Below are positions 535 to 45,273 of a DNA stretch of 45,870 nt, in pieces. Source of the DNA: a virus; the IMG/VR virus record IMGVR_UViG_3300012931_000008, one strand, 5' to 3'. The position numbers were made by a program, and so were the translations under genes. The notes beneath the pieces are model-generated. The model ran no database searches, had not been told where the DNA came from, and saw nothing but the letters and a program-made list of their open reading frames with translations. The first letter of the stretch is position 1, and every line of letters begins with the position of its first letter.

Positions 535-2036
535 CGGTGCGAACGCCCAAACGCAGAACCAGCTCCGAACCGATCGCCGTCGATGGCCTTCGCCGCGTCT
601 ATGGCGCCTTGGGCTACCGCAGCGCCCGCATCGCCGCCTCCGAGGGCCGCAGCTATTCGGCCTACGCGGGTGAAACGCACGATGAGCGGGACCGCACCAA
701 GCTCGTCAACCAATCGCGGGACTTCATGCGCAACAACGCGATCTACAAGGGCATGATCGAGCGGATGGTCAGCTACATCGTCGGCAATGGTTTCGAGCTG
801 CAACTGACCGGGGCCGCCGACGGGACGATTAAAAAGGTCGAGGGACTCTGGCGGGCGTGGTTCGCCAAGCCGGAGATCCGCAACCTGCTCTCGGGGGCGG
901 AGGTCTCGAGGATGGAGTGCCGCGAGCTTCTCGTAGCCGGTGACATCGCCAACTTGAAAACCGATAAAGGCGTCCTCCAGCTCTTCGAGGCCGAGCAGAT
1001 CGACTCGAACCAGACCAAGAAAATTCCCAACGGGATCAAAAAAGACGACTTCGGCCGGCCGGTGGAATTTTCCTTGTGCCCCTGGGGCACGCACGGCATC
1101 GACAAAACGAAGGCCCAGCTCATCGCGGCGGAGAACATTCTTTTTCTGACCAATCCCGAGCGGCCCAGCAGCATTCGCGGTGTGCCCGCCTGCCAGAGTT
1201 CCTTCGCTATGCTGCACCGGATCAACGATGTCTGCGACAGCGAGGCCATCGCCTGGCAGCTCCTCTCGAGACTGGCCGTCTCGATCATCCGGGAACAGGG
1301 ACCCGAGCAGGCCTATACCGAATCCAAAGAGGACCCCAATAAAACAACCGAGGATTTGGAAGGGGACCTCGCCACGCGATTGACGGAGCTGGATTACGCC
1401 CTGATCTTTCACGGCAAGCCGGGCGAAACGGTTCAGGGCATCGAGCGCAATATCCCCGGCATGAATTTTTCTGAGTCGCTGCGGATGTTCCTGCGGCTCT
1501 TAGGTCTGCCCATCGGCTGCCCCCTGGAGCTGGTGCTCTTAGATTGGACCAAGAGCAATTACAGCCAGTCGCGGGCCGTGTTAGAGCAGGCGTTCGAGAA
1601 CTTCCTCTTCTGGCAGTACAAACTGCGTGACTTTTTCTACCAGCCGCTCCTGGATTGGAAGCTCTCAGCCTGGCAGAGCCAGGAAAGCGCTGTCGGCAAG
1701 AACAACAAGTTCGCAGCCAACTGGATCATGCCGACCTTCCCCTGGATCGACCAGCTCAAGGAGGTCCAGGCCTACGCCGAGAAGGTCGAGCGTGGCTTCA
1801 CGACGCACAGCCAGACCTGCAAATCCCTCAAGCTCGATCCCGATGAGGTCCTCGAGCAGCGGGAGGCCGAGATCCATAGCGCCATCGAGCGGTCCCAGCG
1901 CATCGAGAAAGAGACGGGCGTCGCCGTGCCCTGGCAGCACTTCGCGGGCCTCAAACCGCCGACCGCGGCGCCGATGAAGACCGATGAATCCGATTCCTCC
2001 GAAGCATCGGATAAAGAAAAAGAAGGAGATGAATAA
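531..2036 (+). CDS. Portal protein, lambda gpB family
   Basis: Motif SRDFMRNNAIYKGMIERMVSYIVGNGFELQ is typical of lambda-family portals. About 500 aa with an acidic C-terminus. The ATG at 531 is coupled to the upstream stop. Confidence 0.88.
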   Translation: MTVRTPKRRTSSEPIAVDGLRRVYGALGYRSARIAASEGRSYSAYAGETHDERDRTKLVNQSRDFMRNNAIYKGMIERMVSYIVGNGFELQLTGAADGTIKKVEGLWRAWFAKPEIRNLLSGAEVSRMECRELLVAGDIANLKTDKGVLQLFEAEQIDSNQTKKIPNGIKKDDFGRPVEFSLCPWGTHGIDKTKAQLIAAENILFLTNPERPSSIRGVPACQSSFAMLHRINDVCDSEAIAWQLLSRLAVSIIREQGPEQAYTESKEDPNKTTEDLEGDLATRLTELDYALIFHGKPGETVQGIERNIPGMNFSESLRMFLRLLGLPIGCPLELVLLDWTKSNYSQSRAVLEQAFENFLFWQYKLRDFFYQPLLDWKLSAWQSQESAVGKNNKFAANWIMPTFPWIDQLKEVQAYAEKVERGFTTHSQTCKSLKLDPDEVLEQREAEIHSAIERSQRIEKETGVAVPWQHFAGLKPPTAAPMKTDESDSSEASDKEKEGDE

Positions 2037-3616
2037 TGCCTTATCCCAACGAGCACAGCGCGCGATTGCAGGATCCGGGCCGATTCAATCCTGACACCTT
2101 TCGCCGCACGGATGATGGGACGATCTACGGTAAGATCAAGGTCCCCGCGACGGCGGCGGTGATCTGGGGCAAGCTCAAAGGCAAAGATAAACCGGCGGAT
2201 AATCCCATACCGCAGGCGATTCGTTTCCCAACGAAGAATTGGACCGCCGATCGGGCCCGCAAGTGGCTCAAGGATAACAACGTTAAATATATTCGCTTCG
2301 AGCCGGCCAGCGGCGGCAAGGAAAAGAGCCAGCAGGATGAAAACCAGCGAACGGCAACGATTCAAACTCTGCTGGCGCAATTGAGATCGCAGATGTGGGC
2401 AATGGAGGCGCATGCCCTGGAATCGCTCTTTGAAGCGATTGCCTCCCAGCAGACGATTCCACCGCCCAATGTGGCCATTGACGTAAAGCCGGCCGGCCTG
2501 AAGATCGATGGCTCGACGGCCATCATTCCGATCAAAGGCGTGCTGATGCGAGAGATCCCGGTTGCCTTGAGCTGGTGGGGCATTCAGGGCACCAGCTATA
2601 TCTGGATTCAGCAGCAGCTTAGCGAGGCCCTCGCCAGCGAGCAAATCAAGCAGATTCGTCTGGATATCGATTCGCCGGGAGGCACCGTTCCGGGCGTCGA
2701 TGAGACGGCCGAATTGATTCGGGCCGCCAGGGAACAAAAACCCATTGTGGCCGTTGTCGATGACTTATGCGCCTCGGCGGCTTATTGGCTCGCCAGTCAG
2801 GCCGAGCGAATCGAGGCGACAAAAAATTCCGAAGCGGGTTCCATCGGGGTTTTCAGCGTCTATTGGGATCTTTCGGCCCGCGCCAAAGAAATGGGCGTGA
2901 AAGTAATCGTTATCAAATCCGGTGAGCATAAAGCCATGGGCGTGCCTGGCGCCGAGATTAGCGAGACTCAGATTGCCGGCATTCAGCAAATCATCGACGG
3001 CATCGCCGAGAACTTCATCGCCGCCGTTGCCACTGGGCGCCAGCGCGCCAAGGAAGATGTCCGCATCTGGGCGACCGGCCAGCTCTGGTTAGCTGAGACG
3101 GCCAAGCAGCTCGGCGTCATCGACAAAGTGACATCGCTACAAATCAAAGTTCCTCAATCCAAGGAGAAAATCATGGACATGACCGATGAACAAATCAATG
3201 CGCAGATCGAGAAGAACCAATTGCGCGAAGCGGCCGAGAAAGAGCAGCGTGAGCGGCTCGGCCAATTGAAGGCGGCGTTCCCGGATGACCTGGCTTTCGC
3301 CGTCGATGCCTTCGAGAAGGGTTTGACCGTCGAGCAGGCCAAGGCCAACTACTGCGACGTCCTGCGCGAGAAGCTCAAAGACCAGGGCAAAAAGACCGGC
3401 GACAAGACGAGCGGCGCCCCGCCCATTGCCGAGAACAGCTCGGATGCAACGGCCCAGGGTGATTTTCTCGCTGAGGCCAGGCAGCTCGCCAAAGAAAAAG
3501 GCATCACGATGACGGCGGCGATGAAGCAGTTGAACCGCCGCAACCCGGGTCTGCACGCCGCCTTCGTGCAGCGCTGCGAAAGCGAAGGCAAGCGGATGTA
3601 CCAGGAAGCTTGCTGA
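2036..3616 (+). CDS. Prohead protease (S49/SppA-ClpP class, gpC-like) fused to a scaffold-like coiled-coil C-terminus
   Basis: DIDSPGGTV and CASAAYWLASQA are S49 motifs. A charged helical tail follows (EQINAQIEKNQLREAAEKEQRE). AAGGAG lies 7 nt upstream, and the TAATG overlaps the portal stop. Confidence 0.85.
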   Translation: MPYPNEHSARLQDPGRFNPDTFRRTDDGTIYGKIKVPATAAVIWGKLKGKDKPADNPIPQAIRFPTKNWTADRARKWLKDNNVKYIRFEPASGGKEKSQQDENQRTATIQTLLAQLRSQMWAMEAHALESLFEAIASQQTIPPPNVAIDVKPAGLKIDGSTAIIPIKGVLMREIPVALSWWGIQGTSYIWIQQQLSEALASEQIKQIRLDIDSPGGTVPGVDETAELIRAAREQKPIVAVVDDLCASAAYWLASQAERIEATKNSEAGSIGVFSVYWDLSARAKEMGVKVIVIKSGEHKAMGVPGAEISETQIAGIQQIIDGIAENFIAAVATGRQRAKEDVRIWATGQLWLAETAKQLGVIDKVTSLQIKVPQSKEKIMDMTDEQINAQIEKNQLREAAEKEQRERLGQLKAAFPDDLAFAVDAFEKGLTVEQAKANYCDVLREKLKDQGKKTGDKTSGAPPIAENSSDATAQGDFLAEARQLAKEKGITMTAAMKQLNRRNPGLHAAFVQRCESEGKRMYQEAC

Positions 3617-3621
3617 CAAAA

Positions 3622-3657
3622 GTCGGACAGGTCAGACGGGTCGGACAGGTCAGACAA
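3622..3657 (+). repeat. A-type array, 4 x 9 nt (GTCNGACNN)
   Basis: gtcggacag gtcagacgg gtcggacag gtcagacaa, with a degenerate fifth unit gctgacaaa at 3612. It ends 14 nt before ATG 3672. Confidence 0.9.
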
Positions 3658-3671
3658 AGTAAGGAGAATTT

Positions 3672-4091
3672 ATGACAACCTATTCCAATTCACCGAAGAC
3701 CTTCACGTCCGGCGCCGCCCTGGGCGTATTCTTGCGGGTCAAGATCGCCGGCGCCACGCGAAAGGCCTATCTGGCCGGGGCCAGCGATTACGGCGTCGGG
3801 ACGGTCCAGCAAGGCGTCGCCATCAATAAGGACGTCAGCATCCGGCTCTGGGATCACGGCGGCAGCCACAAGTGCGTGGCCTCCGGCGCTATCCTCGCCG
3901 GTCGCAAGGTCTATGCCGCCGCCTCCGGCAAGATCGCCGCGACGGGGACGCTGCTGATCGGCACAGCGCTCGATGCCGCCAGCGGTAACAACAGCGTGAT
4001 CGAGGTGCTGCCTCACCTGAACTATAAGCAATCGAGCAGCTCTTCCTCAAGTTCAAGTTCGAGCTCAAGCTCCTCTTCAAGCTCGAGCTAA
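3672..4091 (+). CDS. Head decoration / capsid cement protein paralog 1 (DUF2190-like), with a C-terminal tail of 19 Ser
   Basis: Occupies the gpD position between protease and capsid gene. Has RBS aaggaga. Paralogous to 4228..4617. The translation ends ...LNYKQ followed by 19 Ser. Confidence 0.6.
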   Translation: MTTYSNSPKTFTSGAALGVFLRVKIAGATRKAYLAGASDYGVGTVQQGVAINKDVSIRLWDHGGSHKCVASGAILAGRKVYAAASGKIAATGTLLIGTALDAASGNNSVIEVLPHLNYKQSSSSSSSSSSSSSSSSSSS

Positions 4092-4227: not shown

Positions 4228-4617
4228 ATGACAACAATGGCCAACAGCCCGTTCACGTTGACGGCCGGGGCCGCCATTGCGGTGTTCCTGCGCGTCAAGG
4301 CCTACGGCCGGACCGGGTATCTCGCCGGGTCCTCTGACTACGGCGTCGGCACCGCCATCGAGGGCGTTGCCAGCGGCAAGATCGTGGCCGTGCGGCTCTG
4401 GGAGCATGGTGGCAGCCATAAGTGCGTCGCCTCCGGCGCGATCAGCGCCGGCGCTAAGGTCTATGCCGCCGCCTCCGGCAAGATCGCCGCCACGGGGACG
4501 CTCTTGATCGGGACGGCGCTCGATGCCGCCAGCGGCAATAACAGCGTGATTGAGGTGCTTCCGCACATCGGGCACACGCAGTCCTCATCGAGCAGCAGCA
4601 GCTCCTCGAGCAGTTAG
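4228..4617 (+). CDS. Head decoration / capsid cement protein paralog 2, with a C-terminal tail of 11 Ser
   Basis: Shares GGSHKCVASGAI..KVYAAASGKIAATGTLLIGTALDAASGNNSVIEVLPH with paralog 1. Ends in 11 Ser followed by TAG. Confidence 0.6.
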   Translation: MTTMANSPFTLTAGAAIAVFLRVKAYGRTGYLAGSSDYGVGTAIEGVASGKIVAVRLWEHGGSHKCVASGAISAGAKVYAAASGKIAATGTLLIGTALDAASGNNSVIEVLPHIGHTQSSSSSSSSSSS

Positions 4618-4679: not shown

Positions 4680-5639
4680 ATGATTCAGAAATCAACCCAC
4701 GCGGTGCCGCGAATGGATTTGGGCGTCGCCTTTCACGAGTACACGATGAGCAAGGTGCGACTGATCGCCGACGCCGTCCTGCCCATCCTGGGCGTCGCCA
4801 AGGAAGCGGCCACGATGAGCGTCACCAAGCGCAAGAACCTGACGATCCCCGCGACCAAACACGCGAACGGGGCAACGTACAATCGCGTCGAGCTCTATAT
4901 GGACGATCTGGCCTACGCCTGCGTCGATCACGGTCTCGAAGGCCAGATCACGGACCGCGACCGCGAAAAGTACGCCAGTGACTTCGACGCCGAGGTTGAA
5001 AAGACCCAGGCGATCAAGACCAAGATGAAGCTGGCCAGAGAGAAGCGAGTTAAGGATCTTATCTTCAACACGACCACCTGGCCCAGCGGGACGGCCGCCC
5101 TCTATACGGACTATAGTTCCGCCCCTTGGGACGCCGCCGGCAGCAAGGTGATCAAACAACTCCAGACGGTCCGTGAACTGGTCCGGCTCAACTGCGGCGT
5201 CCCGGCGGATAGTCTCGTCATCAGCGAATCCTCCATGATCAACCTGATGAATAATACAGAGATTCTTGCCAAATTCCCCGGCGCCACGGCGATCACCGAG
5301 GCCATGCTGAGGGCGGCGATGGCGGCGATTTTAGGTATCCCGAACCTCATCGTCGGCCAGGCCGTCTATAACTCCGCTGATGAGGGCCAGGATTTTAGCG
5401 GCGCCGAGATCTGGCCGGATGATTATGCCATGGTCGCTGTTCTGGGCGCCGACGGCCTGCCGATGACGGAGCCCCAGCTTGGCCGCACGATTCTGTGGGA
5501 GAATTACACACCCGACATCGAATACATCGAGATGTACCGCGAAAACCAGACCAAGAGTGACATCATCAATGTCGAGCAGAGTATCGATGAGAAGGTCTTC
5601 GATGCCTACTTCGGCCATCTGATGAAGATCGATGCGTAA
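4680..5639 (+). CDS. Major capsid protein (gpE position, presumed HK97 fold)
   Basis: A 319-aa ORF after the protease and decoration genes with a strong RBS. The size and position are those of a major capsid gene. Confidence 0.75.
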   Translation: MIQKSTHAVPRMDLGVAFHEYTMSKVRLIADAVLPILGVAKEAATMSVTKRKNLTIPATKHANGATYNRVELYMDDLAYACVDHGLEGQITDRDREKYASDFDAEVEKTQAIKTKMKLAREKRVKDLIFNTTTWPSGTAALYTDYSSAPWDAAGSKVIKQLQTVRELVRLNCGVPADSLVISESSMINLMNNTEILAKFPGATAITEAMLRAAMAAILGIPNLIVGQAVYNSADEGQDFSGAEIWPDDYAMVAVLGADGLPMTEPQLGRTILWENYTPDIEYIEMYRENQTKSDIINVEQSIDEKVFDAYFGHLMKIDA

Positions 5640-19315: not shown

Positions 19316-20031
19316 AACTTTTCTTTTTCACCTACGTGGATCGCAATCCCAAGTATCGGGCGGAGGCCGATATCCTGATTCGGTCCGGGCGGCGGTTCGG
19401 TCGGGACATTTATCTATTCGAGATCCCCGATGGTGCGATGTGGAACCGATACAAGGTCGATCTCTTGGCTGCTGAGCTACCCGCCGCTGACCGCTACATC
19501 TGCCTCGATAGCGATACGATCCTGACGGGCCCGGGCGATTGGGAGGCGGAGGATTGTCAGGGCGTGATGGATATCCTGTATTATTGCGATGAACATGAGC
19601 GGGACAAACATACGAAGGCCTTCATCCGCAATCACACCATCTGCCGTGGCGATCCGGGCGCCTACGACTGCGTTCTATCGCTGTGGCGACAATTCAATGA
19701 TCCGATCTGGCCGAACAGCGGCGTCGTGGTCCTCGATGCTGGAATCCGCCTGCCCTTTGCCGAGTGCTGGAAGCAGTGGATGGCCCAGATTGATAGCCAC
19801 TGTGATCGAGGCTATATCATCGGCGATGAAGCGCCCTGCATGTTCGCCCGGCACGAGTTCGGCCTTCCGCTGCTGCCGCCGCGATTCAACATCTGCTTGA
19901 AATGGCAACCCGTGCCGGCCGATGCCGTGCTCCTGCACGCCGACGGCAACGTCACGGGCGAAAAACGAATCCCTTACAATGAAGTTTTGGAAGATCTGAT
20001 CGCCTATGAGCGAACCGCAAAAGCCTTATGA
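19312..20031 (+). CDS. GT-A glycosyltransferase, GT8-like
   Basis: YICLDSDTI (DxD), NSGVVVLD and LLHADGNV resemble GT8 signatures. Confidence 0.6.
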   Translation: MKLFFFTYVDRNPKYRAEADILIRSGRRFGRDIYLFEIPDGAMWNRYKVDLLAAELPAADRYICLDSDTILTGPGDWEAEDCQGVMDILYYCDEHERDKHTKAFIRNHTICRGDPGAYDCVLSLWRQFNDPIWPNSGVVVLDAGIRLPFAECWKQWMAQIDSHCDRGYIIGDEAPCMFARHEFGLPLLPPRFNICLKWQPVPADAVLLHADGNVTGEKRIPYNEVLEDLIAYERTAKAL

Positions 20032-20782
20032 GATTTCAAATCTCGAATCTCAAATTATCTTCCCGCCCTGGTATGGTGAGTTGGGCTGGGAGGTGATGAC
20101 CTGGGCGCCCTTCTGCCGGCGGGCGGCCCAAGGCCATGAACGGGTAATCGTGACGACCTTCGATGGGATGGCTCCCTTATACGCCGACTTCGCCACCGAG
20201 TTTCGCTCGAATGGAGAGAGGGCCCGCTCGCTGACGTATCCCAAGCATTATCGCGTCAAGGGCCTCCATTACCGGTACGGCCGGCGCGAGAAGGCGGGGA
20301 CGTATTTCGACCTATTGATTCATGCCAGGGGCGTCGCCCGCAAGAGCAGTATCAATTATCGCTACTGGCCCCAGCTTGCGGACCTCATCGAGCGCAAGGG
20401 CTGGTCGGTGGCCTGGATCGGCGGGCCGAAGGATACCTGGCAGCCCGGCTGCGGTTTCGATCTGCGAGGCCTGGAGCTTCAAAAGCTGATGGACATTATC
20501 GCCGCCTCGAGGTTGGTCATAGGCGTCAGCTCGGGGATCATGCACTTAGCGGCCGCGTGCGGAACGGACTTACTCGTCTGGGGCGATCGCCGGACCTATT
20601 TCGGCGAGACGCTTGAGACGCGCTACAAGGCAACATGGAACCCGCACCAGGTCCGGGTCGGCTGGATTGACGCCGACAACTGGCAGCCGGAACCGCAGCG
20701 GATCATCGAAGAAATCGAAACAATAATCAATCAGACGGGTCAGACAGGTCGGACAGGTCAGACAATGAAAGGACAGCAATGA
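20006..20782 (+). CDS. GT-B glycosyltransferase, GT9 (heptosyltransferase)-like
   Basis: PPWYGELGWEVMTWAPF and LVIGVSSGIMHLAAACGTDLLVWG. The start is uncertain because the ORF overlaps the upstream gene and the F array. Confidence 0.55.
   Translation: MSEPQKPYEISNLESQIIFPPWYGELGWEVMTWAPFCRRAAQGHERVIVTTFDGMAPLYADFATEFRSNGERARSLTYPKHYRVKGLHYRYGRREKAGTYFDLLIHARGVARKSSINYRYWPQLADLIERKGWSVAWIGGPKDTWQPGCGFDLRGLELQKLMDIIAASRLVIGVSSGIMHLAAACGTDLLVWGDRRTYFGETLETRYKATWNPHQVRVGWIDADNWQPEPQRIIEEIETIINQTGQTGRTGQTMKGQQ
20032..20059 (+). repeat. F-type array, 4 x 7 nt (AATCNNN)
   Basis: gatttca aatctcg aatctca aattatc. It starts right after the TGA of the GT8-like gene. Confidence 0.6.
20730..20765 (+). 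repeat. A-type array, 4 x 9 nt
   Basis: atcagacgg gtcagacag gtcggacag gtcagacaa. Here it is read as QTGQTGRTGQT. It ends 13 nt before ATG 20779. Confidence 0.9.
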
Positions 20783-22647
20783 AAATTCTCTTGCGCAATA
20801 CCCAACCGCTCTTGGGCGACCGGCTGATGTTCACACCTTTAGTGCGGGATTTGAAAAAGGCCCATCCCGACTGGCGGATCGGCGTCGAATCGGCCGGGCC
20901 GGAGATCTGGCTGAATAATCCACACGTGGATTGCTCGATCAATGAGGCGAACGCCGACAAGATCTACGACGTCGGGCCGGGCAAGGTGACGCGGGGCAGT
21001 AAGACCAACGGCTTGCACATCACAGCAGCCTTCCGCTGCTCGCTGGAAGAGCAGTTAGGCGAGGCAATTGCCCAGGGTCCCTTCAAGCCGGACGTTTATC
21101 TTTCAGACGCTGAGAAGGCCCAGCGCATGATCGACGGCGACTATTGGGTGATCAATTGCGACACGGGGCCTTTCACCGCCAAGCGCTGGCCGTTAGAGCG
21201 ATTTCAGGCCGTGGTAAATGCATTGCCGGACCTGACGTTCGTTCAGGTCGGCTTAGGCAAGGACTGTCACGGCCGGCTCAAAGCCCCCAATGTCATCGAC
21301 CTGATCGACGGGACCAAGGTCCGCGAACTCTTCAGCCTGGTCTATCACGCCCATGGCTGCATCAGCCTGGTCAGTTCGCTCATGCACGTCGCTGCCGCCT
21401 TCGATAAGCCTTGCGTAGTGATCGCCGGCGGACGCGAGCCGCCGACCTTCGAACGGTACGCCTGGCATCGCTACATCGACAACGTCGGCTGCCTGCCCTG
21501 CTGCAAGATGCAGGCCTGCTGGCACAATGCGCTATCCGCCTGTAAGGACCATGATGACAATTACGCCCATTGCATGAGGCTCATAGAGGCCCCTGACGTC
21601 GTCTCAGCCGTGCGATCCTATTATCGGGGGGGAAGGCTCGAATCGCCCAGGTCTATCAAAGCGGCGGCCACGCTGCGGCCGTTGCTGCGTATCGTGGCGA
21701 AAGGCTCATTCTTAGGTGGGGCCGAGCGGTCCTGGACCACGATTGCCCGGCTTTTCGTCAAGAACAACTGGCGGGTCGAGATCTCGCCCCCCGATCCGCT
21801 GAATCCCGCCGTCGCCGCCCAACTGCCGCCGGAGGCCATCGTGACGAACCATCTCTCTCGCCCCTGCGATGTGCTGCTGTTCTATGCCTCGGATCTGGTG
21901 TTCAGCTTCGATGACCCCAAGTACGGCATCTTTGAGGAGCTGCGGTCCGGCCGCAAGGTCATGGCCCTGACCTATAAGATCGGCAAGGCGGGCGAGGTCC
22001 CCTGGACCAAAGGCTGGGACCGGTATCTCTTTCTCTCGACCGCGCTTCGGGACGGCTTTCAGGCGAAGGTTGGAAAGGCAGTGTTTTCAAGTTGCGTTCT
22101 CGCCCCCTGTGTGGACCTTGAACCGTTTCTGAGAATGTCCGACAAGTCAGACAGGTCCGACAAGTCCGACCAGATTCGATTAGTTCGCCATTCGAGCCAG
22201 GGCGATAAGAAGTACCCGATGAGCCTCTTGCAGATCATGGCCGAGACGAAGGCCCGGTATAACTTCATGCCTAAACCGGGCTTTTTGTCGGAGAGATCGG
22301 ACAAGTTAGACTGGTCCGATTGGTCCGACGACCCCGAGAAGGTCGCCGCCTTTCTTGCCTCCGGCAATTGCTTCTGGTACCTGCTCCCGGACGGCTACAC
22401 CGACCAGGGCCCGCGCGTGATCGTCGAGGCGATGGCCGCGGGCCTGCCGGTGATCGCCGAGAACCGCGACGGCGCCGCCGATCGCGTCACGCCGGAAACC
22501 GGATGGCTCATCGATCGGCATGAGGAGGCAATCGAAATAATCTCAAATCTCAAATCTGAGATTTTGATGGCGAAGGGCCGGGCCGCCCGCCAGCGGGCCA
22601 TCGAAGAATTCAAACCGCTAAAATGGTTCGAGGCCATCGTGAAATAA
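20779..22647 (+). CDS. Fusion glycosyltransferase: N-terminal GT9-like (with a Cys cluster) plus C-terminal GT4/GT1-like
   Basis: GDRLMFTPLVRDLKKAHPD and LVSSLMHVAAAFDKPCVVIAGGREP (GT9). Cys cluster CLPCCKMQACWHNALSACKDHDDNYAHC. VIVEAMAAGLPVIAENRDG (GT4). It carries A arrays in frame. Confidence 0.7.
   Translation: MKILLRNTQPLLGDRLMFTPLVRDLKKAHPDWRIGVESAGPEIWLNNPHVDCSINEANADKIYDVGPGKVTRGSKTNGLHITAAFRCSLEEQLGEAIAQGPFKPDVYLSDAEKAQRMIDGDYWVINCDTGPFTAKRWPLERFQAVVNALPDLTFVQVGLGKDCHGRLKAPNVIDLIDGTKVRELFSLVYHAHGCISLVSSLMHVAAAFDKPCVVIAGGREPPTFERYAWHRYIDNVGCLPCCKMQACWHNALSACKDHDDNYAHCMRLIEAPDVVSAVRSYYRGGRLESPRSIKAAATLRPLLRIVAKGSFLGGAERSWTTIARLFVKNNWRVEISPPDPLNPAVAAQLPPEAIVTNHLSRPCDVLLFYASDLVFSFDDPKYGIFEELRSGRKVMALTYKIGKAGEVPWTKGWDRYLFLSTALRDGFQAKVGKAVFSSCVLAPCVDLEPFLRMSDKSDRSDKSDQIRLVRHSSQGDKKYPMSLLQIMAETKARYNFMPKPGFLSERSDKLDWSDWSDDPEKVAAFLASGNCFWYLLPDGYTDQGPRVIVEAMAAGLPVIAENRDGAADRVTPETGWLIDRHEEAIEIISNLKSEILMAKGRAARQRAIEEFKPLKWFEAIVK
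22137..22172 (+). repeat. A-type array, 4 x 9 nt, inside the glycosyltransferase ORF
   Basis: gtccgacaa gtcagacag gtccgacaa gtccgacca, read as SDKSDRSDKSDQ and preceded directly by an in-frame ATG (22135). Confidence 0.9.
22296..22331 (+). repeat. Degenerate A-type array, 4 x 9 nt
   Basis: atcggacaa gttagactg gtccgattg gtccgacga, read as RSDKLDWSDWSDD. Confidence 0.6.
22539..22559 (+). repeat. F-type array, 3 x 7 nt
   Basis: aatctca aatctca aatctga, within the glycosyltransferase C-terminus. Confidence 0.55.
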
Positions 22648-25600
22648 ATGTCAACCACAGGGGCGAAATTTCCGACCGCATCGTCCACCACATCAGAGGC
22701 CCCCTACGATCATCTGACCTGGCAGACGCCGAACAACATCTTCGGCAACGAAGGCAACAACTGCTACATTGACGACAACGCCTTCGATAGCGGCATCGAA
22801 TCCTACATCCTCAAGGGCAAAGGTTTTGACTTTTCCGTCATCCCCGACAGCGCGACCATCGTCGGCGTCACCGTCAAGGTGGAAGCCCACTATACCACTG
22901 GCGCCGCCGGCATTGCCTTGGCCCAGCTCTTAGATACCAGCGGCGCCAAGGTGGGAACGAACCTCTGCTCGACGCCCAAACCAATCACTCAAACGACGCC
23001 GACCGTGATTACGATCGGCGCGGCGGACAATCTCTGGGGCAACGTCCTGACGCCTCAATGGGTGAAGGACCCCGATTTCGGCGTCGCGCTCGGGGTGATC
23101 CCGACGGGCAATAATTCCAATGTCTATATCGACTACGTCACGATGGAAGTGACCTACGCCGAATCCAGCTCCAGCTCCTCGAGCAGCAGCTCAAGTTCGA
23201 GCAGCAGCGAGTCGTCTTCCAGCTCTTCGCTAAGTTCGAGCAGCAGCGAATCGTCTTCCAGCTCATCTTCGTCTTCGAGCCAGTCGAGCAGCTCCTCTTC
23301 ACAGTCGAGCAGCTCGACAAGTTCCAGCTCTTCATCATCGAGCAGTTTTTCAGCGACGCCTTTGCCCGGTTTTCTCGTCACGGATGACATCACGAACTAT
23401 ATTAATCTCAACCATACGATACACCGAAAGCTGGTACGAACATCGAACGGGGATTTGCACTGTGTCTATTACCGTACCATTTCGGGATACAATCAAATCT
23501 GCTACGCCAAATCGACGGATGGCGGAGAAACATGGGCCGAGACACAACTAACTTCTGCCAATTATGGTCAGTCCAATCCAGCGATAGCAGTTGATTCGAA
23601 TGATGTTCTCCACGTCGTTTGGGAAGGCAAATCAGCCGGCAGCACCACCAACGCACAAATCCGCTACATGAAATACGACGGTTCGTGGAGCGGCATTACT
23701 GAATTGACCGACAGCACAAAGGGAGACGGCGCGCAAACCTATTGTGGCATCGCCGTCGATTCGAATGATTATCTTCACGTCTGCTGGGAAGGTAAACCGG
23801 AAGGTGGTTCTTATCACCAAATTCGCTATATCAAATTTACAGATTCATGGCAGACCATTGTAGATTTATCCTCTGAAACCTACGATCAGGGTGTTCCCAC
23901 TATTGGCGTCGCTCCCAATGATAATGTTCACGTATTCTGGGATGGCCAGAACGATGCGTCGCCAACCCATGTCCAAGTCCACCATCGTGTCTATACGGAT
24001 TCGTGGCAGGATATTGAAGACCTCACATCAAGTGAATGGAGTTCATACGAACCGCACTGTGCGTTTGATTCAAGCGGCAACGTGCATTTAGCTTATCAAA
24101 GTCAGGAAGAGACTGTATGGAATGTCAGATACCGGCTCTACAACGGCTCCTGGCAGGCCGAGGTGGATATAACAAGTGGAAGCATCTACGAGAACTCATC
24201 TATTACGATTGCTGTCGATGCTCAGGATGATATACACGTTGCTTGGAATGGTTATCACGCTGGTTCGTCGAGCACCTACCAAATCCGCTACCGCCTCTAT
24301 AACGGTTCCTGGCAGGCGATTCAAAACCTCACGGAATATTTACCCGAGCAGCGGGTGCCCAATCTGATCTGGGCCTATCATCCCATCATCGGCGGCGCCC
24401 GAACGAATCGCCCGGCGACGGGCTATGCCCTGATCTGGGCCAACGATAATTCAGAGATCCGCTATTTAGCCAGTGACGATCTAACCTGGGATCCGCCGAG
24501 TTCTTCATCGAGCTCCTCGGAATCTTCAAGCAGCAGCGAATCGAGTTCCAGCCAGTCGTCTTCCAGCTCGTCATCAAGCCAAAGCTCCAGCTCGTCGTCC
24601 TCGAGTTCGTCGCAGTCCAGCTCCAGCAGCTCGTCAAGCCTGAGCTCCAGTTCGTCCAGCAGCAGCGAATCGTCCTCAAGCTCATCGTCCTCGCTGAGCT
24701 CCAGTTCGAGCAGCAGCCTTTCGTCCAGCTCATCATCCAGCAGCCTTTCCAGCAGTTCGTCCAGCAGCTCGCTGTCGTCCAGCTCATCGTCATCGAGCCT
24801 TTCGTCCAGCTCATCATCGAGCGAAAGCTCCAGCTCTTCGAGCAGCTCAAGCTCCGAATCGATTTCATCGTCCAGCAGCTCGCTTTCGTCAAGCTCATCG
24901 TCATCGAGCCAAAGTTCCAGCTCTTCGAGCAGCTCAAGTTCCGAGTCGAGTTCATCGTCCAGCAGCTCGCTTTCGTCAAGCTCATCGTCATCGAGCCTAT
25001 CGTCCAGTTCGTCATCGAGCCAAAGTTCCAGCTCTTCGAGCAGCTCAAGTTCCGAGTCGAGTTCATCGTCCAGCAGCTCGCTTTCGTCAAGCTCATCGTC
25101 ATCGAGCCAGTCGAGCAGCAGCAGCCAATCGAGTTCCAGCCAGTCGTCTTCAAGCCAATCGTCTTCAAGCCAATCGTCTTCAAGCTCGCAGTCGTCATCG
25201 AGCCAGTCGAGCAGCAGCAGCCAATCGAGTTCCAGCCAGTCGTCTTCCAGCTCGCAATCGTCATCGAGCCAGTCGAGCAGCAGCAGCCAATCGAGTTCCA
25301 GCCAATCGTCTTCCAGCTCGCAATCGTCATCGAGCCAGTCGAGCAGCAGCAGCCAATCGAGTTCCAGCCAGTCGTCTTCAAGCTCGCAATCGTCATCGAG
25401 CCAGTCGAGCAGCAGCAGCCAATCGAGTTCCAGCCAATCGTCTTCAAGCTCGCAATCGTCATCGAGCCAATCGAGCAGCAGCAGCCAATCGAGTTCCAGC
25501 CAGTCGTCTTCAAGCTCGCAATCGTCATCGAGCCAGTCGAGCAGCAGCAGCGAGTCGTCTTCCAGCCAATCGTCTTCCAGCTCGCAGTCGTCATCGAGCC

Positions 25601-26112
25601 AGTCCAGCAGCAGCAGCCAATCAAGTTCGAGCCAGTCGTCCAGCAGCAGCGAATCGTTTTCCAGCCAGTCGTCTTCCAGCCAATCGTCCTCTTCCAGCTC
25701 GATCTCACTATCTTCATCGAGCGAATCCTCGAGCACCTCCTCCTCCTCGAGCAGCTATGGCCTATCACCCAATACGGCGGACCGGGCCTTAATGGCGGCG
25801 GGATTCGGCGTTCAGGAGAGTCTATCGGCGGCGACGATCACCTATCTGGCTCGCGGCGGCGGCTCTCGCTCGATTAAGGCGATTGTGGAATACGTGGGCG
25901 CTCAGCCGCTCGACGGTCTAAAAGGCGGCTCGCGGCCACACGTGGAGCTGCTCGTTCGCAATCACGCGACGTTAGGCATCTTATCGAAGGAGATTGACAC
26001 CGGCGGTGATAAGGTCCAGGTCCCGCTGCGGATGGGCCGCTCGGTGCGGACCGTTCGGATCGTGAAAATTATAGCCCAGGACCGGGCCATGCTGCGGCTC
26101 GCCGCCTGGTAA
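22648..26112 (+). CDS. 1154-aa serine-rich virion appendage protein: unknown N-domain, Ser linker, six-bladed BNR-like propeller, ~420-aa Ser tract, gpFII-like C-domain
   Basis: Asp-box STDGGETW. Six repeats of the (I/C)A(V/F)D(S/A)xDxxH(V/L)xW(E/N/D)G type. The C-terminal 110 aa align with ORF 5639..5986 (GGSRPHVELLVRNHA..IDTGGDKVQV..VRIVKIIAQDRAMLRL vs GGSRPPMEVLVKNNA..VDTGGDRIEV..FRIVEIVNHDAGLMLL). Confidence 0.75.
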   Translation: MSTTGAKFPTASSTTSEAPYDHLTWQTPNNIFGNEGNNCYIDDNAFDSGIESYILKGKGFDFSVIPDSATIVGVTVKVEAHYTTGAAGIALAQLLDTSGAKVGTNLCSTPKPITQTTPTVITIGAADNLWGNVLTPQWVKDPDFGVALGVIPTGNNSNVYIDYVTMEVTYAESSSSSSSSSSSSSSSESSSSSSLSSSSSESSSSSSSSSSQSSSSSSQSSSSTSSSSSSSSSFSATPLPGFLVTDDITNYINLNHTIHRKLVRTSNGDLHCVYYRTISGYNQICYAKSTDGGETWAETQLTSANYGQSNPAIAVDSNDVLHVVWEGKSAGSTTNAQIRYMKYDGSWSGITELTDSTKGDGAQTYCGIAVDSNDYLHVCWEGKPEGGSYHQIRYIKFTDSWQTIVDLSSETYDQGVPTIGVAPNDNVHVFWDGQNDASPTHVQVHHRVYTDSWQDIEDLTSSEWSSYEPHCAFDSSGNVHLAYQSQEETVWNVRYRLYNGSWQAEVDITSGSIYENSSITIAVDAQDDIHVAWNGYHAGSSSTYQIRYRLYNGSWQAIQNLTEYLPEQRVPNLIWAYHPIIGGARTNRPATGYALIWANDNSEIRYLASDDLTWDPPSSSSSSSESSSSSESSSSQSSSSSSSSQSSSSSSSSSSQSSSSSSSSLSSSSSSSSESSSSSSSSLSSSSSSSLSSSSSSSSLSSSSSSSSLSSSSSSSSLSSSSSSSESSSSSSSSSSESISSSSSSLSSSSSSSSQSSSSSSSSSSESSSSSSSSLSSSSSSSSLSSSSSSSQSSSSSSSSSSESSSSSSSSLSSSSSSSSQSSSSSQSSSSQSSSSQSSSSQSSSSSQSSSSQSSSSSQSSSSQSSSSSQSSSSQSSSSSQSSSSQSSSSSQSSSSQSSSSSQSSSSQSSSSSQSSSSQSSSSSQSSSSQSSSSSQSSSSQSSSSSQSSSSQSSSSSQSSSSQSSSSSESSSSQSSSSSQSSSSQSSSSSQSSSSQSSSSSESFSSQSSSSQSSSSSSISLSSSSESSSTSSSSSSYGLSPNTADRALMAAGFGVQESLSAATITYLARGGGSRSIKAIVEYVGAQPLDGLKGGSRPHVELLVRNHATLGILSKEIDTGGDKVQVPLRMGRSVRTVRIVKIIAQDRAMLRLAAW
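23161..23345 (+). repeat. Ser-codon tract 1 of the giant ORF (about 60 codons)
   Basis: Mixed AGC/TCN codons with occasional E, L, Q and T. Confidence 0.85.
24499..25754 (+). repeat. About 1.26 kb of Ser-codon tandem repeats, including about 7-8 copies of a 66-nt unit (about 25110-25640)
   Basis: The unit is cagtcgagcagcagcagc caatcgagttccagc cagtcgtcttccagctcg caatcgtcatcgagc (QSSSSS QSSSS QSSSSS QSSSS). Successive 60-nt lines shift by 6 nt. Confidence 0.85.
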
Positions 26113-26172: not shown

Positions 26173-26178
26173 ATTTAG

Positions 26179-27290: not shown

Positions 27291-27325
27291 AATCTTAAAT
27301 CACAAATCACAAATCTTAGATCCAA
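27291..27325 (+). repeat. F-type array, 5 x 7 nt
   Basis: aatctta aatcaca aatcaca aatctta gatccaa. It ends 18 nt before ATG 27344. Confidence 0.75.
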
Positions 27326-28395: not shown

Positions 28396-28543
28396 AACTA
28401 AAATAGTGACCCTTCGAAACGGGAAGAAAAAACGAGTAAATCTCTTTGATTACAATATGGCCTATGCAGCGGATGGATACGTTCAACTTACAGATGATAG
28501 CTGGATCAAGGCGAGATTACTTAAGGCTTTAAATAGTCAATAG
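28373..28543 (+). CDS. Hypothetical small protein (56 aa)
   Basis: AAGGAG lies inside the B array, 5 nt upstream. The stop TAG lies inside a D array. Confidence 0.5.
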   Translation: MKTSLIDRTKIVTLRNGKKKRVNLFDYNMAYAADGYVQLTDDSWIKARLLKALNSQ

Positions 28544-28565
28544 TAAATAGTCAATCGTCAATGGC
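28531..28565 (+). repeat. D-type array, 5 x 7 nt (CAATAGT)
   Basis: aaatagt caatagt aaatagt caatcgt caatggc. TAG at 28534, 28541 and 28548 covers all three frames. Confidence 0.85.
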
Positions 28566-28700: not shown

Positions 28701-29699
28701 ATGATTACAGCCACATCCCTGGTTCAGACTTTTTTGAGTGAGCATGTTCTGTTTTTAGCCGAAAGCACACTCGAGACGATCGAGCGGGCGTTCCGTTACT
28801 TCGTTCGCGCGGTGGGCAATCGGCGGATCGACCGGATCGAGCCGGCCGATGGCGAGGCGTACAAGGCCTGGCATTTGAGGACCAGCCGCAGCAAGACGAC
28901 GGCGAACATCCATTTGCGCAGCGTCAATTGGGTGCTCAATTGGGCCGTCGATCCGAAGAAGTTTCTGGCGGTCAACCCGCTGGCTCGGATCAAGCAGTTC
29001 CGCATCACCCGCAACCCGATTCGCATCTATGAGCCGCACCAGGTCGAGCGGATGATGCGCTTTGCTCCTAACGATCGATGGCGGGCGATTCTGCTGAGTG
29101 CCTATCAGACGGGTCTTCGTCGCGGTGAGCTGCTGAATCTGACGCGCGACAACGTTCGCGGCGGCCACATCTACGTCGAGCCCAAGCGCAGCACGCGGCA
29201 GACCTGGCCCTGGGAGCCGAAGGATAAAGAGATCCGTCAGGTCCCGATTACGCCCGAGCTCGATGCGATGCTTGCTGCCTTGCCCGGTTACTATGTTCTG
29301 CTGGATCCGCAGCAGGTCAGTCGGTTGCTCGGACTGCAGAGGCTCGGTTTGCTCAGGCATCGGCAGCGAAAGTGCCCGCAGGAGAATTTCCGCCGGACGT
29401 TTGTGGCGATCCAGCGGCGGGCCTTCGGCCGACAGATCGGCAACTTTCATCAGTTGCGAAAGACCTTCACGACAATGATGTGTACCGGTCTGCCTGACTA
29501 TCAGGTGATGCAATTGACCGGCCACAGCAGTCTCAAAACGATGACTTATTACCTGGCGAGCAGGCAGTCGGACGACCAGATCGTGCGCCAAATCGCCTCG
29601 CAGGGGCTAAAAAAAGGGTCTCCGGCGATACCAGAGACCCAGCCACACCCGCTGTGTCGCGGGCAAAGCGATTGGGCGATACAGGACTTGAACCTGTGA
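28701..29699 (+). CDS. int: Tyrosine recombinase / phage integrase
   Basis: AAGGAGG lies upstream of ATG 28701. Motifs LSAYQTGLRRGELLNL (Arg I), HQLRKTF (HxxR) and LTGHSSLKTMTYY (His-Tyr). The 3' tail runs into a tRNA fragment. Confidence 0.9.
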   Translation: MITATSLVQTFLSEHVLFLAESTLETIERAFRYFVRAVGNRRIDRIEPADGEAYKAWHLRTSRSKTTANIHLRSVNWVLNWAVDPKKFLAVNPLARIKQFRITRNPIRIYEPHQVERMMRFAPNDRWRAILLSAYQTGLRRGELLNLTRDNVRGGHIYVEPKRSTRQTWPWEPKDKEIRQVPITPELDAMLAALPGYYVLLDPQQVSRLLGLQRLGLLRHRQRKCPQENFRRTFVAIQRRAFGRQIGNFHQLRKTFTTMMCTGLPDYQVMQLTGHSSLKTMTYYLASRQSDDQIVRQIASQGLKKGSPAIPETQPHPLCRGQSDWAIQDLNL

Positions 29700-30224: not shown

Positions 30225-30275
30225 GAACCGCAGGTGAACGCAGGTGAACGCAGATGAACGCAGATGAACGCAGAT
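30225..30275 (+). repeat. C-type array, 5 x 10 nt (GAACGCAGAT)
   Basis: gaaccgcaggt gaacgcaggt gaacgcagat gaacgcagat gaacgcagat. It ends 19 nt before ATG 30295. Confidence 0.9.
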
Positions 30276-30699: not shown

Positions 30700-30737
30700 A
30701 AATAGTCAATAGTCAATAGTCAATAGTCAATAGTAAA
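30700..30737 (+). repeat. D-type array, 5-6 x 7 nt
   Basis: aaatagt followed by caatagt x4. Five TAGs cover all three frames. It ends 7 nt before ATG 30745. Confidence 0.9.
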
Positions 30738-30744
30738 TCCAAAG

Positions 30745-32549: not shown

Positions 32550-33410
32550 ATGGACGCGGCAAAACAGTCTGACAGGTCAGATAGGTCGGACGGGTCAGAC
32601 AAAAAATTAACCGGCACGCGCGAGTGGGCGGCGGCGACGACCAATATCCAGACCGGCTGCGAGCATGACTGCCGGTACTGCTATGCGCGGTACGATGCGG
32701 TAACGCGGCGTAAGCGATGCACCCGCGAGCAATGGCGAGTGCCTTTGATCCACGCCGATCGGCTCGATGCCCGCTACCGGTTGCTGCCAGGCCCCGTCAT
32801 GTTCCCCTCAACCCACGACATCACGGCAAACAACATCAGCGAGTGCCTGGTCGTGATTAAGAAGCTCTTAGAGGCGGGCAATGAGCTGCTCATCGTCAGT
32901 AAGCCCACCCTTGAATGTGTGCAGCTCCTCTGTGAGGTCCTGCGGCCCTGGCAGCGGCGGATCACATTTCGCTTCACCATCGGCTCGATGAGCGATGAGA
33001 TTCTCTCCTTCTGGGAGCCGGGGGCGCCGAGCTTCGAGTCGCGGTTCAAGAGCCTCACGTGCGCTTACTTCGCCGGCTACCGCACGAGCGTCTCCTGCGA
33101 GCCATACTTGGATGGCTTTCCGCAGCATGTTTATCACGCCTGCCGCGATTACTTGGTTGATAGTTTTTGGATCGGCAAGCTGCGCAATTGGGCCAGCCGG
33201 GTCGATCTATCGGGTGCCACGACCGAGGAGATCAAGCTCTACGTCGAACCACTCAAGGCCGCCCAACGTGACGGGTTTGTGCGGGGCCTGGTCCGAATAC
33301 TCGACGGCCGCAAATTCATTCGCTGGAAAGACAGCATCCGCGAAGTCATCGAAAAGGAACCGCAGATGAACGCAGATGAACGCAGATCCACGAAGGACAC
33401 AGAGCAATGA
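32550..33410 (+). CDS. Radical SAM enzyme (CX3CX2C), SplB/COG1533-like
   Basis: TGCEHDCRYCYARY. The ATG follows a B array. The N-terminus crosses an A array and the C-terminus crosses a C array. Confidence 0.65.
   Translation: MDAAKQSDRSDRSDGSDKKLTGTREWAAATTNIQTGCEHDCRYCYARYDAVTRRKRCTREQWRVPLIHADRLDARYRLLPGPVMFPSTHDITANNISECLVVIKKLLEAGNELLIVSKPTLECVQLLCEVLRPWQRRITFRFTIGSMSDEILSFWEPGAPSFESRFKSLTCAYFAGYRTSVSCEPYLDGFPQHVYHACRDYLVDSFWIGKLRNWASRVDLSGATTEEIKLYVEPLKAAQRDGFVRGLVRILDGRKFIRWKDSIREVIEKEPQMNADERRSTKDTEQ
32567..32602 (+). repeat. A-type array, 4 x 9 nt
   Basis: gtctgacag gtcagatag gtcggacgg gtcagacaa, read as SDRSDRSDGSDK, 17 nt after ATG 32550. Confidence 0.9.
33357..33405 (+). repeat. 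Composite array: C x3, then B x1, then E x1
   Basis: gaaccgcagat gaacgcagat gaacgcagat ccacgaagg acacagagc, then a-ATG 33407. Confidence 0.9.
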
Positions 33411-35750: not shown

Positions 35751-36114
35751 GCAAATCTATAAGCAGATCATTGCCACGGGCCGCGAATGGAAAGGCTGTG
35801 AGCAGTGCGGCCGGCGGTTCGAGATGGGTGAAATCATCACGGCCATGCAGATATACAGCGGCATGGTGGTTTACTGGGAGTGCAGCGACTGCACGGAGGA
35901 ATGGTTCGGCCCTTACGATGACGAGCTCAAACTCCAGCCGCCGCCTCCGCCGCCGGAATTTGTACTGATCTCAATGAATCCCCAGACAAAGACGCTCGAG
36001 ATGTTTGATGGTCAGACCGTATCGCCGCTGGCGAATCTGAACCACGAAGGGCACGAAGGGACACGGAGCAAATGGTCAATCGTTCATCGTTCATCGATGA
36101 ACTACGAACCATGA
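35737..36114 (+). CDS. Hypothetical zinc-ribbon protein
   Basis: CEQCGRRF...WECSDCTEEW. The tail crosses a B array (NHEGHEGTRS). Confidence 0.5.
   Translation: MHESEQIYKQIIATGREWKGCEQCGRRFEMGEIITAMQIYSGMVVYWECSDCTEEWFGPYDDELKLQPPPPPPEFVLISMNPQTKTLEMFDGQTVSPLANLNHEGHEGTRSKWSIVHRSSMNYEP
36042..36068 (+). repeat. B-type array, 3 x 9 nt
   Basis: ccacgaagg gcacgaagg gacacggag, 3 nt before ATG 36072. Confidence 0.85.
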
Positions 36115-38213: not shown

Positions 38214-38235
38214 TCAATAGCGAATAGTCAATCTT
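38201..38235 (+). repeat. D-type array, 5 x 7 nt
   Basis: cgatcgt caatagt caatagc gaatagt caatctt. TAG at 38211, 38218 and 38225 covers all three frames. Confidence 0.85.
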
Positions 38236-41757: not shown

Positions 41758-41765
41758 ACGCTGAT
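41735..41765 (+). repeat. C-type array, 3 x 10 nt
   Basis: aaaccgcagat gaacgccgat gaacgctgat, followed by aatctgtga aatctgtgg. Confidence 0.8.
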
Positions 41766-43240: not shown

Positions 43241-43259
43241 GGATCCCTTGCGATAAAAG

Positions 43260-45239: not shown

Positions 45240-45241
45240 TA

Positions 45242-45262: not shown

Positions 45263-45273
45263 AGGAGTTCATT

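Follow-up and report, generated by a model that had tools for sequence, protein, structure and literature searches.

Tandem arrays of an imperfect nonamer with a conserved palindromic core at gene boundaries of a lambda-like phage genome

Extragenic palindromes of the REP/BIME type have an imperfect unit of 20–40 bp with a GTAG/CGTC tag and are linked to RAYT transposases, and the cooperative occupation of short boxes in tandem is established for ribbon-helix-helix proteins, which coat 7–8-bp arrays (the heptads of omega, the 8-bp boxes of MetJ). Long simple-sequence repeats, with units of 5–11 nt, occur in prokaryotic genomes (Mrazek et al. 2007, as summarized in PMC4679880). The TAACTGA heptamers of Beggiatoaceae, Cyanobacteria, and Bacteroidetes are suspected of having a binding protein (MacGregor 2015, PMC4679880). 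Among the start-associated sequences (SAS/ESAS) of Cluster K mycobacteriophages, SAS consists of a single 13-bp asymmetric motif with AGGAG, located 3–7 bp from the start, conserved at orthologous genes of the cluster and lacking in the host (PMC3203893). Finally, the GTCnGAC core is a proven target of a dimeric fold in the operators of the GntR-family proteins FadR and LldR, aaCTGGTCnGACCaGtt and AAnTGGTCnGACCAnTT (PMC9329746, PMC10272880). Here we analyze an element that can be compared with each of these, in a viral DNA of 45,870 nt (IMG/VR record IMGVR_UViG_3300012931_000008; the window is this whole stretch). The element, called the A array, is made of tandem 9-nt units (GTCNGACNN) with a core GTCNGAC and a two-nucleotide spacer; N4, N8, and N9 are its free positions. 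As to their identity, the A arrays are very probably imperfect nonamer tandem repeats that turn over fast at gene boundaries and belong to the long simple-sequence repeat class. As to mechanism, they might, by analogy with known operators, be a binding-site array for a putative dimeric protein, a proposal that we regard as the likeliest of those considered but still doubtful.

The window is a complete phage genome from a circular assembly (bases 1–123 recur at 45748–45870), with a GC content of 57% and nearly all genes on the + strand. A three-unit pattern with at most three mismatches finds 18 overlapping matches in it, all on the + strand, against 0.02 expected from shuffles. These fall into eight loci of four to five head-to-tail 9-nt units, as in long simple-sequence repeats, namely six clean four-unit arrays and two degenerate ones. 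A preliminary description of this DNA had listed seven copies of four units each. The arrays are real and the shuffled control it proposed sets them far above chance, but only six are clean, its degenerate copy at 22296 is a locus of five units, and an eighth locus (36145–36180) was missing from its list. Array 1 (3622–3657), with units GTCGGACAG GTCAGACGG GTCGGACAG GTCAGACAA, is intergenic and noncoding; it starts 5 nt past the TGA of an S49 protease open reading frame (ORF; 2036–3616) and ends 14 nt before the ATG (3672) of a decoration/cement protein. Array 2 (20730–20765), whose first unit reads ATC, forms the C-terminal tail (NQTGQTGRTGQT) of an ORF (20006–20782) similar to glycosyltransferase (GT) family GT9 and ends 13 nt before the ATG at 20779. 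Array 3 (22137–22172; read as SDKSDRSDKSDQ) is not at a start: it falls within the stretch that links the GT9 domain of ORF 20779–22647 to its GT1 domain, and the same linker holds the degenerate array of five units (22287–22331; SERSDKLDWSDWSDD). Array 4 (32567–32602; SDRSDRSDGSDK) starts 14 nt after the ATG (32550) of a radical-SAM-like ORF and has an array of the CACGAAG type and a Shine-Dalgarno sequence upstream. The other degenerate array (36145–36180), of four units with 4 core mismatches, lies near the N-terminus of ORF 36072–36506. Array 5 (36470–36505) reads KSDRSDKSDRSD and then stops, TAA being in its last spacer, and ends 22 nt before the ATG of a ParB_N-domain ORF (36528–38213). 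Array 6 (45489–45524; QTSPTGQTSPI) starts 16 nt after the ATG (45470) of a 99-aa gene between terminase and portal.

The conservation of the units is strongly patterned. Among the 24 units, 141 of 144 core positions are intact, and 31 of 72 free positions depart from the consensus (Fisher p = 2e-14); a hand count, unit by unit and with a position-specific consensus, puts the differences at ~2% for the core and 29% for the free positions. The use of N in the search pattern does not create this contrast, since at the divergence of the free positions intact cores would be vanishingly rare. Within the spacer, all 24 units have a purine at position 9, and at position 8 there is A in 16 of them and C in 4. 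The claim of the preliminary description that conservation lies at the nucleotide and not at the protein level is therefore upheld by the contrast between core and free positions, by G1, which is the third codon position in the S-D-x frame and is kept in 23/24 units, and by the noncoding copy, which is perfect. The core that is kept is dyad-symmetric, its centre and the spacers are free, and the phasing is fixed, which fits an operator or binding-site array for a dimeric protein.

The reading frames, which had been correctly given, are S-D-x at 22137, 22287, 32567, and 36470 and Q-T-G/S at 20730 and 45489, the copy at 3622 being untranslated. Hence, since one copy is untranslated and two are in another frame, protein-level selection cannot explain the pattern. 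If the arrays were selected as peptides, that is, as flexible S-D-(K/R) or collagen-like G-x-T linkers and tails, one would expect what is found in the four arrays translated as S-D-x, in the many matches elsewhere that are long in-frame G-x-T or S-D-x repeats of large ORFs, and at N4, which is the synonymous site of a TCN serine codon. Frame usage largely refutes this view, as does the fixation of G1; orthologues lack these peptides, and four triplets are too short for a collagen helix, so that we consider it very improbable and, as a general account, excluded. Array 1, though it follows a TGA, stays in the protease frame as S-D-x (the ORF ends TGA-C; 3614–3660), which could reflect a former C-terminal tail truncated by a stop or else read-through of the stop codon.

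At the RNA level, the six arrays share a predicted fold in which GUC and GAC are paired and the free positions unpaired. An RNA hairpin of this kind, with unit 1 on unit 4 and unit 2 on unit 3, would form an imperfect stem that stabilizes, processes, or terminates transcripts. It would reproduce the conservation pattern, and the three core changes are two C-to-U changes, compatible with wobble pairing, and one change at a terminal pair. In the bacterial loci described below, moreover, ~11% of the noncoding arrays lie enclosed between flanks that are complementary over 7 bp or more, against 2.6% in shuffles. However, the z-scores of the folds range from −0.1 to −2.2 and are unremarkable in 4/6 arrays, and facing N positions could pair in 24% of cases where 39% would be expected, without a compensatory pattern (1/12 pairs in the window, by our own reading of the N patterns). 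Nor do the spacers ever co-vary, and Rfam finds nothing in the window except tRNA. A hairpin is thus quite unlikely to be what the core encodes. An intrinsic terminator, and likewise an antisense one made of the array and the T-run that the A-rich lead-in forms on the other strand, was also considered and is unsupported. No T-run follows the arrays; a T-rich tail follows only 4/42 post-stop arrays in the bacterial loci. No promoter-like (sigma-70) or sense-strand terminator-like site coincides with any array of the window.

The copies have a common origin. When aligned, the loci show the same A-rich lead-in, a centre that alternates as S-A-S-A, and AA as the last spacer, and at the free positions the window arrays are more similar among themselves (identity 0.47) than to external arrays (0.37; p = 0.02). 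Arrays 1 and 2 are 88% identical over 43 nt, 3′ flank included up to the Shine-Dalgarno sequence, and their last 2.5 units are near-identical. It is thus well supported that a single ~45-nt cassette is present at these loci in dispersed copies; it consists of an A-rich lead-in followed by four imperfect units of approximately (GTC-S-GAC-AG, GTC-A-GAC-RR) twice. The locus at 22287–22331 has one extra 9-nt unit relative to the orthologue, in the form of a tandem duplication (TGGTCCGAT TGGTCCGAC, where the orthologue has one TGGTCCGAC), and the neighbouring sequence is more motif-like in the window than in the orthologue. Arrays thus appear to grow by 9-nt duplication, and they spread by within-genome copying.

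Comparison with related phages shows how fast these arrays turn over. The closest relative, IMGVR_UViG_3300031949_000082 (36.5 kb; large terminase [TerL] 87% identical in amino acids, ~77–80% in nucleotides; late genes collinear), contains zero pairs of adjacent A units. At the protease/decoration junction it has AATTGTCAATTGTCAAT (AATTGTC heptamers) in place of array 1, and at the GT9/GT junction three families follow one another (CACGAATGAA-type, ATGGAYA, and AATCGTC), of which the first is translated and forms the C-terminal tail. It has ordinary coding sequence (NEELKKEAAA) instead of array 6 at the N-terminus of the 99-aa gene, whose first ~20 codons are swapped as a block, and no array at the position equivalent to 22137. 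Its dominant family is the heptamer AATTGTC/AATCGTC, with at least 13 sites. More distant members of the TerL clade have other 7–10-nt repeats at the same junctions, with a partly shared vocabulary, and an A array is present in only one of them, L349, where its five units lie 7 nt upstream of the start of TerL. Distant relatives found through the protease have zero A arrays, these being too distant to inform; a ParB-like query gave nothing in IMG/VR, and a scan of metagenomes gave no contigs beyond those already found. A link to ParB/parS, suggested by array 5 preceding a ParB_N gene, was rejected, because relatives with the same gene carry other repeats there. The presence of some repeat at a junction is thus conserved, and its identity is not: A arrays are gained, lost, and swapped for other families quickly. 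In related phages, then, the arrays do not behave as conserved features of these genes.

Such turnover is also what one would expect of functionless filler, that is, of repeats born by slippage, homogenized by ectopic conversion, and tolerated only at gene boundaries, without a reader. The 9-nt duplication at 22287–22331, the presence or absence of arrays in close relatives, and the interchange of many families at one junction all agree with it. So does the predominance of transitions among the differences at N between adjacent units (GA/AG and TC/CT more than GC/CG and AT/TA), and there are precedents: polymorphic intergenic tandem repeats are known in Planctomycetota (PMC9426551), and units whose length is a multiple of 3 are known to make their way into coding sequence (Mrazek 2007, as reported in PMC4679880). 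However, neutral decay would strike core and free positions alike, and what is observed is 2% against 29–43%; unlike in a plain long simple-sequence repeat, decay is not uniform over the unit (3/144 against 31/72). Conversion, for its part, would homogenize the free positions too, and the core recurs across phyla with heterogeneous free positions. Nor does the unit number vary among three near-identical assemblies of the phage, a small sample, in which there are zero indels at any array. We therefore regard filler as an unlikely account, and even if the arrays were only tolerated filler, a decay that leaves a palindromic core fixed and the centre and spacer free would be unusual and would need explanation.

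The A arrays are not the only repeats at these junctions. Tandem Repeats Finder gives 51 merged arrays with a 6–11-nt period in the window, of which 35 occupy gaps or lie no more than 60 nt from a gene end; among these 35, 30 are purine-rich on the sense strand. It is well supported that A arrays are one of at least five families of 7–10-nt tandem repeats at gene junctions of this phage lineage. The family CACGAAG plus 2–3 purines has ten clusters of at least two units and a further array at 27071; its arrays, of two to three copies on the + strand, are at 27071, 27259, 28016, 28340, 30102, 32512, 35145, 36043, 40950, 41361, and 45214. They often begin at a stop (TGA/TAA-CCACGAAG) and run into the Shine-Dalgarno sequence of the next gene. 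The motif count is 37 on the + strand and 2 on the − strand, and the exact 17-mer CCACGAAGGGCACGAAG is found in 91 stretches of IMG/VR contigs. The GTG within the reversed motif is a false start, which makes a test for Shine-Dalgarno sequences and starts uninformative for this family. Arrays of the decamer CGCAGATGAA lie directly upstream of start codons (30229–30275, 33361–33387, 41739–41765), and the same unit is found 3′ of TerL in a relative with 69% TerL identity (L385, 11913–11942). Arrays of the heptamers AATAGTC and AAATCAN are at 28532–28562, 30701–30738, 38206–38232, 27297–27315, and 45240–45263; AAATCAN matches WATCACW, the target heptad of the pSM19035 omega repressor. Heptads of AATCNNN, the core fixed and three positions free, make up TerL codons 4–12 (43271–43295 in the window) in most of the clade members that were examined (L347, L348, L356, L384), though each heptad shifts the frame; AATCNNN is thus a nucleotide-level element within the TerL N-terminus.

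Boundary sequences common to several phages could provide microhomology for the exchange of modules. If the arrays were recombination linkers of this type, one would understand why repeats are found at nearly every junction of the early region, including edges of homology with the closest relative at 26176, 30431, and 41833, why the vocabulary (CACGAAG.., CACAGAGGA, CGCAGATGAA, AAATCAT) is common to phages with only 60–70% TerL identity, and why the first ~20 codons of the 45470 gene were replaced as a block. However, both flanks of the A arrays are orthologous, syntenic, and of similar identity, and no exchange is seen there. Repeats occur at almost all junctions, so that coincidence with mosaic edges is expected, and chromosomal copies after housekeeping genes (see following) are left unexplained. 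The linker explanation therefore has little probability. Between 30431 and 41833, the ~11-kb early region (radical-SAM-like, HerA-like, and ParB_N genes and a 395-aa ORF) has no counterpart in the closest relative, where there is a different module (comparison with L362/L347).

In the window, the arrays are close to starts. Five of the six clean arrays are within 25 nt of a predicted start (p = 5e-5 for random placement); three arrays end 13–22 nt upstream of one, with a separate Shine-Dalgarno sequence, two are downstream, and two are internal. The distances to ATG codons in the preliminary description are correct to within 1 nt, and its claim that arrays are always next to a start codon holds for these five but fails for the ATG at 22135, which is an internal in-frame codon of a 622-aa two-domain glycosyltransferase and not a start, since the orthologue is continuous over residues 2–620. 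Orientation is the same at all eight loci. The strand specificity also claimed for the element applies to its spacers, with their invariable purine, but not to the core GTCNGAC, which is its own reverse complement and gives 27 matches on each strand.

Outside this lineage the same arrays are common. The three-unit pattern in viral contigs and the four-unit pattern across one genome per species are both widespread among the matches listed; taxon counts, drawn from these, are indicative only, the first 80 genome matches listed comprising 39 from Verrucomicrobiota/Lentisphaerota/Planctomycetota/Kiritimatiellia and 17 from Bacteroidales. Many viral matches are in-frame collagen-like G-x-T or S-D-x repeats inside long ORFs, which are a different thing. 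Genes in the fetched loci (L numbers) were called with a codon model of our own, and of the 30 ORFs checked, which were nearly all the larger calls, 29 have Pfam support on the called strand. Arrays with heterogeneous units recur at gene junctions of unrelated phages. In L047 an array lies between an S49 protease and a decoration gene, the same junction as at 3622, with a protease identity of 37%. Others are found where the protease gene ends, 31 nt upstream of the following ATG (L033/L059), 12 nt past a stop codon that probably belongs to the capsid gene (L050), 14 nt before an ATG (L069), and 8 nt after an ATG (L065). L044 has the order stop, array, Shine-Dalgarno sequence, GTG, and a second array in the portal N-terminus. 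In the HK97-type module of L012, arrays fill the portal/protease and protease/capsid gaps, in the orientation opposite to that of the window. The proximity to starts first described for the window thus recurs in several other phages.

The bacterial loci contain 141 arrays, 52 of them coding and most of the others between genes. As the nearest gene end within 60 nt of a noncoding array, stops outnumber starts by 33 to 9; arrays in gaps are in convergent ones in 22 cases and in divergent ones in 6. Orientation relative to the adjacent gene is unbiased (20 vs 19 after stops, 10 vs 7 before starts), and the genes upstream are ordinary ones (purD, pheS, aroA, aroE, parB, a DbpA-type helicase, transporters). 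Strand and start specificity, as proposed from the window, therefore largely breaks down in other genomes. A crude test for a Shine-Dalgarno sequence and start downstream of arrays in other genomes had given no signal (5 vs 5, 6 vs 7), being swamped by coding repeats, and tests based on gene calls were used instead. A read-through tail was rejected, since post-stop arrays show no preference for the S-D-x phase (8/40). In Prevotella ihumii (L279, 2700–2850; L240), an array lies between 23-bp perfect inverted repeats, resembling a miniature transposable element. In Lentisphaerae SIG83 (L262, 700–1600), an array lies within a ~200-nt repeated element, one paralogous copy of which holds a different 10-nt repeat instead. 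It is well supported that the (GTCNGACNN)n family is not phage-specific: unrelated phages carry it at gene ends, and so do the chromosomes of Verrucomicrobiota, Lentisphaerota, Planctomycetota, Bacteroidales, and others.

These distributions bear on the view that the array is an RNA-level initiation element. An mRNA array ~15 nt on either side of the AUG would be a structure-poor, purine-rich landing zone, or a site of the S1, cold-shock, or RegA-like type, and would raise or gate initiation. The placement in the window agrees with this, 5/6 arrays being 14–24 nt from an AUG on either side, as do the order stop, array, Shine-Dalgarno sequence, start in L044, L047, L033, and L069 and the start followed by an array in L065 and in the portal gene of L044. 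Leaders with any repeat fold more weakly (means of −9.8 to −10.0 vs −15.2 kcal/mol in leaders without repeats), which is compatible with initiation regions being kept open, though no proof of it. Orthologous junctions retain some repeat though the family changes, and the TAACTGA repeats are a precedent (PMC4679880). However, in bacteria the arrays lie near stops, are more frequent in convergent gaps, and show no bias in orientation, those of L012 are antisense relative to the window, and two arrays are far from starts, in an interdomain linker. A generic spacer leaves the strict conservation of GTC and GAC unexplained, and by their z-scores the A arrays are no less structured than shuffles. 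An initiation element is thus a minority possibility.

In the best reading, the array is a marker of gene boundaries rather than a signal for start codons. Each unit spans three codons, and two of its sense frames are stop-free and hydrophilic, so that arrays survive in spacers, in the first or last ~20 codons of genes, and in an interdomain linker. They are next to start codons mainly because only boundaries tolerate a 36-nt insertion and because a packed one-strand genome puts starts at every boundary; adjacency to starts is therefore mostly a by-product of compactness. In this boundary repeat, the GTC and GAC triplets would be under purifying selection at the nucleotide level, with a 9-bp phasing, in either orientation, and whether coding or not. 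Selection on the triplets in any context would imply that something reads the interrupted palindrome, and the most likely reader would be a dimeric nucleic-acid-binding protein that occupies the array cooperatively. Taken as a whole, the statement that this is a turning-over boundary repeat whose palindromic core is read by a dimeric factor is tentative, somewhat more likely to be wrong than right. Among the roles first suggested for the arrays, the evidence favours a binding site, weakens an initiation modulator as a general role, and gives no direct support to a recombination linker. Other conceivable readings are footprints of transposon target-site duplication (9 bp at a symmetric target, as for IS10), primase GTC sites, Chi-like sites, and restriction-site decoys.

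Several points weigh against a dimeric reader. No binding protein was identified, and among the neighbouring and small ORFs of the phage there are no DNA-binding families beyond weak MarR-like and ParB_N matches. The reader would have to be common to several phyla, and operators are normally found at promoters and not after stops. Since the nearest relative lacks A arrays, any function must be dispensable or generic. The flanks do not complete the 17-bp palindrome of the FadR type, and a 9-bp pitch would force overlapping footprints on a typical winged-helix dimer. A symmetric reader does not explain why 8/8 loci are oriented on one strand; the history of copying, tolerance in coding sequence, and a sense strand that is generally rich in purines (as in the 30/35 boundary repeats) must account for it. 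Finally, the gene calls in the other loci are home-made.

One can extend the proposal of a dimeric reader into a wider and rather improbable one, in which the GTCNGAC array would be a widespread, orientation-independent boundary element, with REP-like placement and direct repeats, read by a protein of broad distribution in the PVC group and Bacteroidota. The phage families (GTCNGACNN, CACGAAGRR, CGCAGATGAA, AATCNNN, and others), each with its own factor, would then form a fast-rewritten junction code that sets cistron expression or processing. If a factor does read the core, the array would be a simple and portable gene-boundary signal in the poorly studied Verrucomicrobiota, Lentisphaerota, Planctomycetota, and Bacteroidales and in their phages, and the family swaps at identical junctions of sister phages would be a natural experiment on regulatory rewiring inside operons. 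For annotation, arrays add spurious S-D-x or Q-T-G heads and tails to predicted proteins, can mislead start-codon calling, and may mark the host lineage of uncultured phages.

The phage itself belongs to a temperate lambda-like siphovirus lineage. Its head module is lambda-like, with small terminase (41779–42813), large terminase (43260–45212), portal, the S49 protease, decoration protein (3672–4091), and capsid (4680–5639), and an integrase (28701–29699) adjoins tRNA-Met, which indicates that it is temperate. The window has zero DNA matches in the phage collection, and TerL is at most 26% identical to that of any cultured phage, none of which is a close relative. A near-same genome (99.98% identical over the compared stretches) is present in two ENA assemblies. 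The host would belong to the PVC group, judging only from where A arrays are common. Other features of the genome deserve mention. The decoration/cement-like genes form a pair that shares a stretch of 249 nt with 81% identity (3768–4016 vs 4318–4566), a tandem gene duplication. After the glycosyltransferases, a 1154-aa ORF (22648–26112) contains long internal repeats (33/66-nt period at 25087–25737, 87/111-nt period at 24757–25109) that create long shadow ORFs on the opposite strand. Between the small and large terminase genes there is a gene-free segment of 446 nt (42814–43259), and an HNH endonuclease gene (40297–40947) lies just upstream of the packaging genes; the segment is a candidate cos region with HNH-assisted cleavage. 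Inside the 395-aa ORF, which has weak MarR/winged-helix matches, three tandem palindromic decamers TTTCCGGAAA (38755–38784) are kept in two distant relatives (L384, 5345–5375; L385, 2525–2543) and look like origin iterons within an initiator gene, by analogy with lambda O.

The preliminary description held that no described element matches the A array. A literature search with the exact sequence found only primers, but elements of this kind have already been described, as long simple-sequence repeats of 5–11-nt units, as TAACTGA heptamers (PMC4679880), and as intergenic repeats of Planctomycetota (PMC9426551). With the first and last of these, A arrays share a head-to-tail, mostly intergenic disposition, the entry of multiple-of-3 units into genes, a patchy distribution, and apparent growth by unit duplication; they differ from the long simple-sequence repeats as summarized in having a patterned imperfection (six positions fixed, three free), a palindromic core, and four copies fixed in the clean arrays. 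TAACTGA repeats, too, come as tandems of two to six copies that occupy many intergenic regions near starts, mostly in one orientation within one genome; they are sometimes in ORFs and are found in distant phyla. However, their unit is 7 nt long, nonpalindromic, and identical, and overlaps the ribosome-binding site, whereas A arrays have a 9-nt unit with a palindromic core, 14–24 nt from the AUG and separate from the Shine-Dalgarno sequence, and elsewhere are stop-proximal and orientation-free.

Like SAS (PMC3203893) and the protein-bound stoperators of Cluster A (PMC9283540), A arrays have many dispersed copies per phage, in one orientation, at gene starts or in short gaps; unlike SAS, they are tandem, have a palindromic core and no AGGAG, are missing from the closest relative, and are abundant in bacterial genomes. 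With the FadR and LldR operators they share the GTCnGAC interrupted palindrome, there read by winged-helix dimers as TGGTCnGACCA, but not the full 17-bp palindrome: position 8 is C in 4/24 units, the pitch is 9 bp, the arrays do not lie at promoters, and the phage yielded no protein of this kind. The bacterial copies resemble REP/BIME in lying after stops, more commonly in convergent gaps, in either orientation and many copies per genome, some of them enclosed in stems or inverted repeats; they differ from them in being direct 9-nt repeats with no visible GTAG/CGTC tag that also occur inside coding regions. The A arrays have the defining features neither of a structured RNA family or an intrinsic terminator nor of collagen-like or Ser-Asp repeat proteins. 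In conclusion, their behaviour is closest to that of the TAACTGA repeats and of the intergenic repeats of Planctomycetota, and what is unusual here is the pattern of conservation, in which an interrupted palindrome stays fixed at a 9-bp pitch while its centre and the spacer vary freely, in either orientation and in coding and noncoding copies alike.

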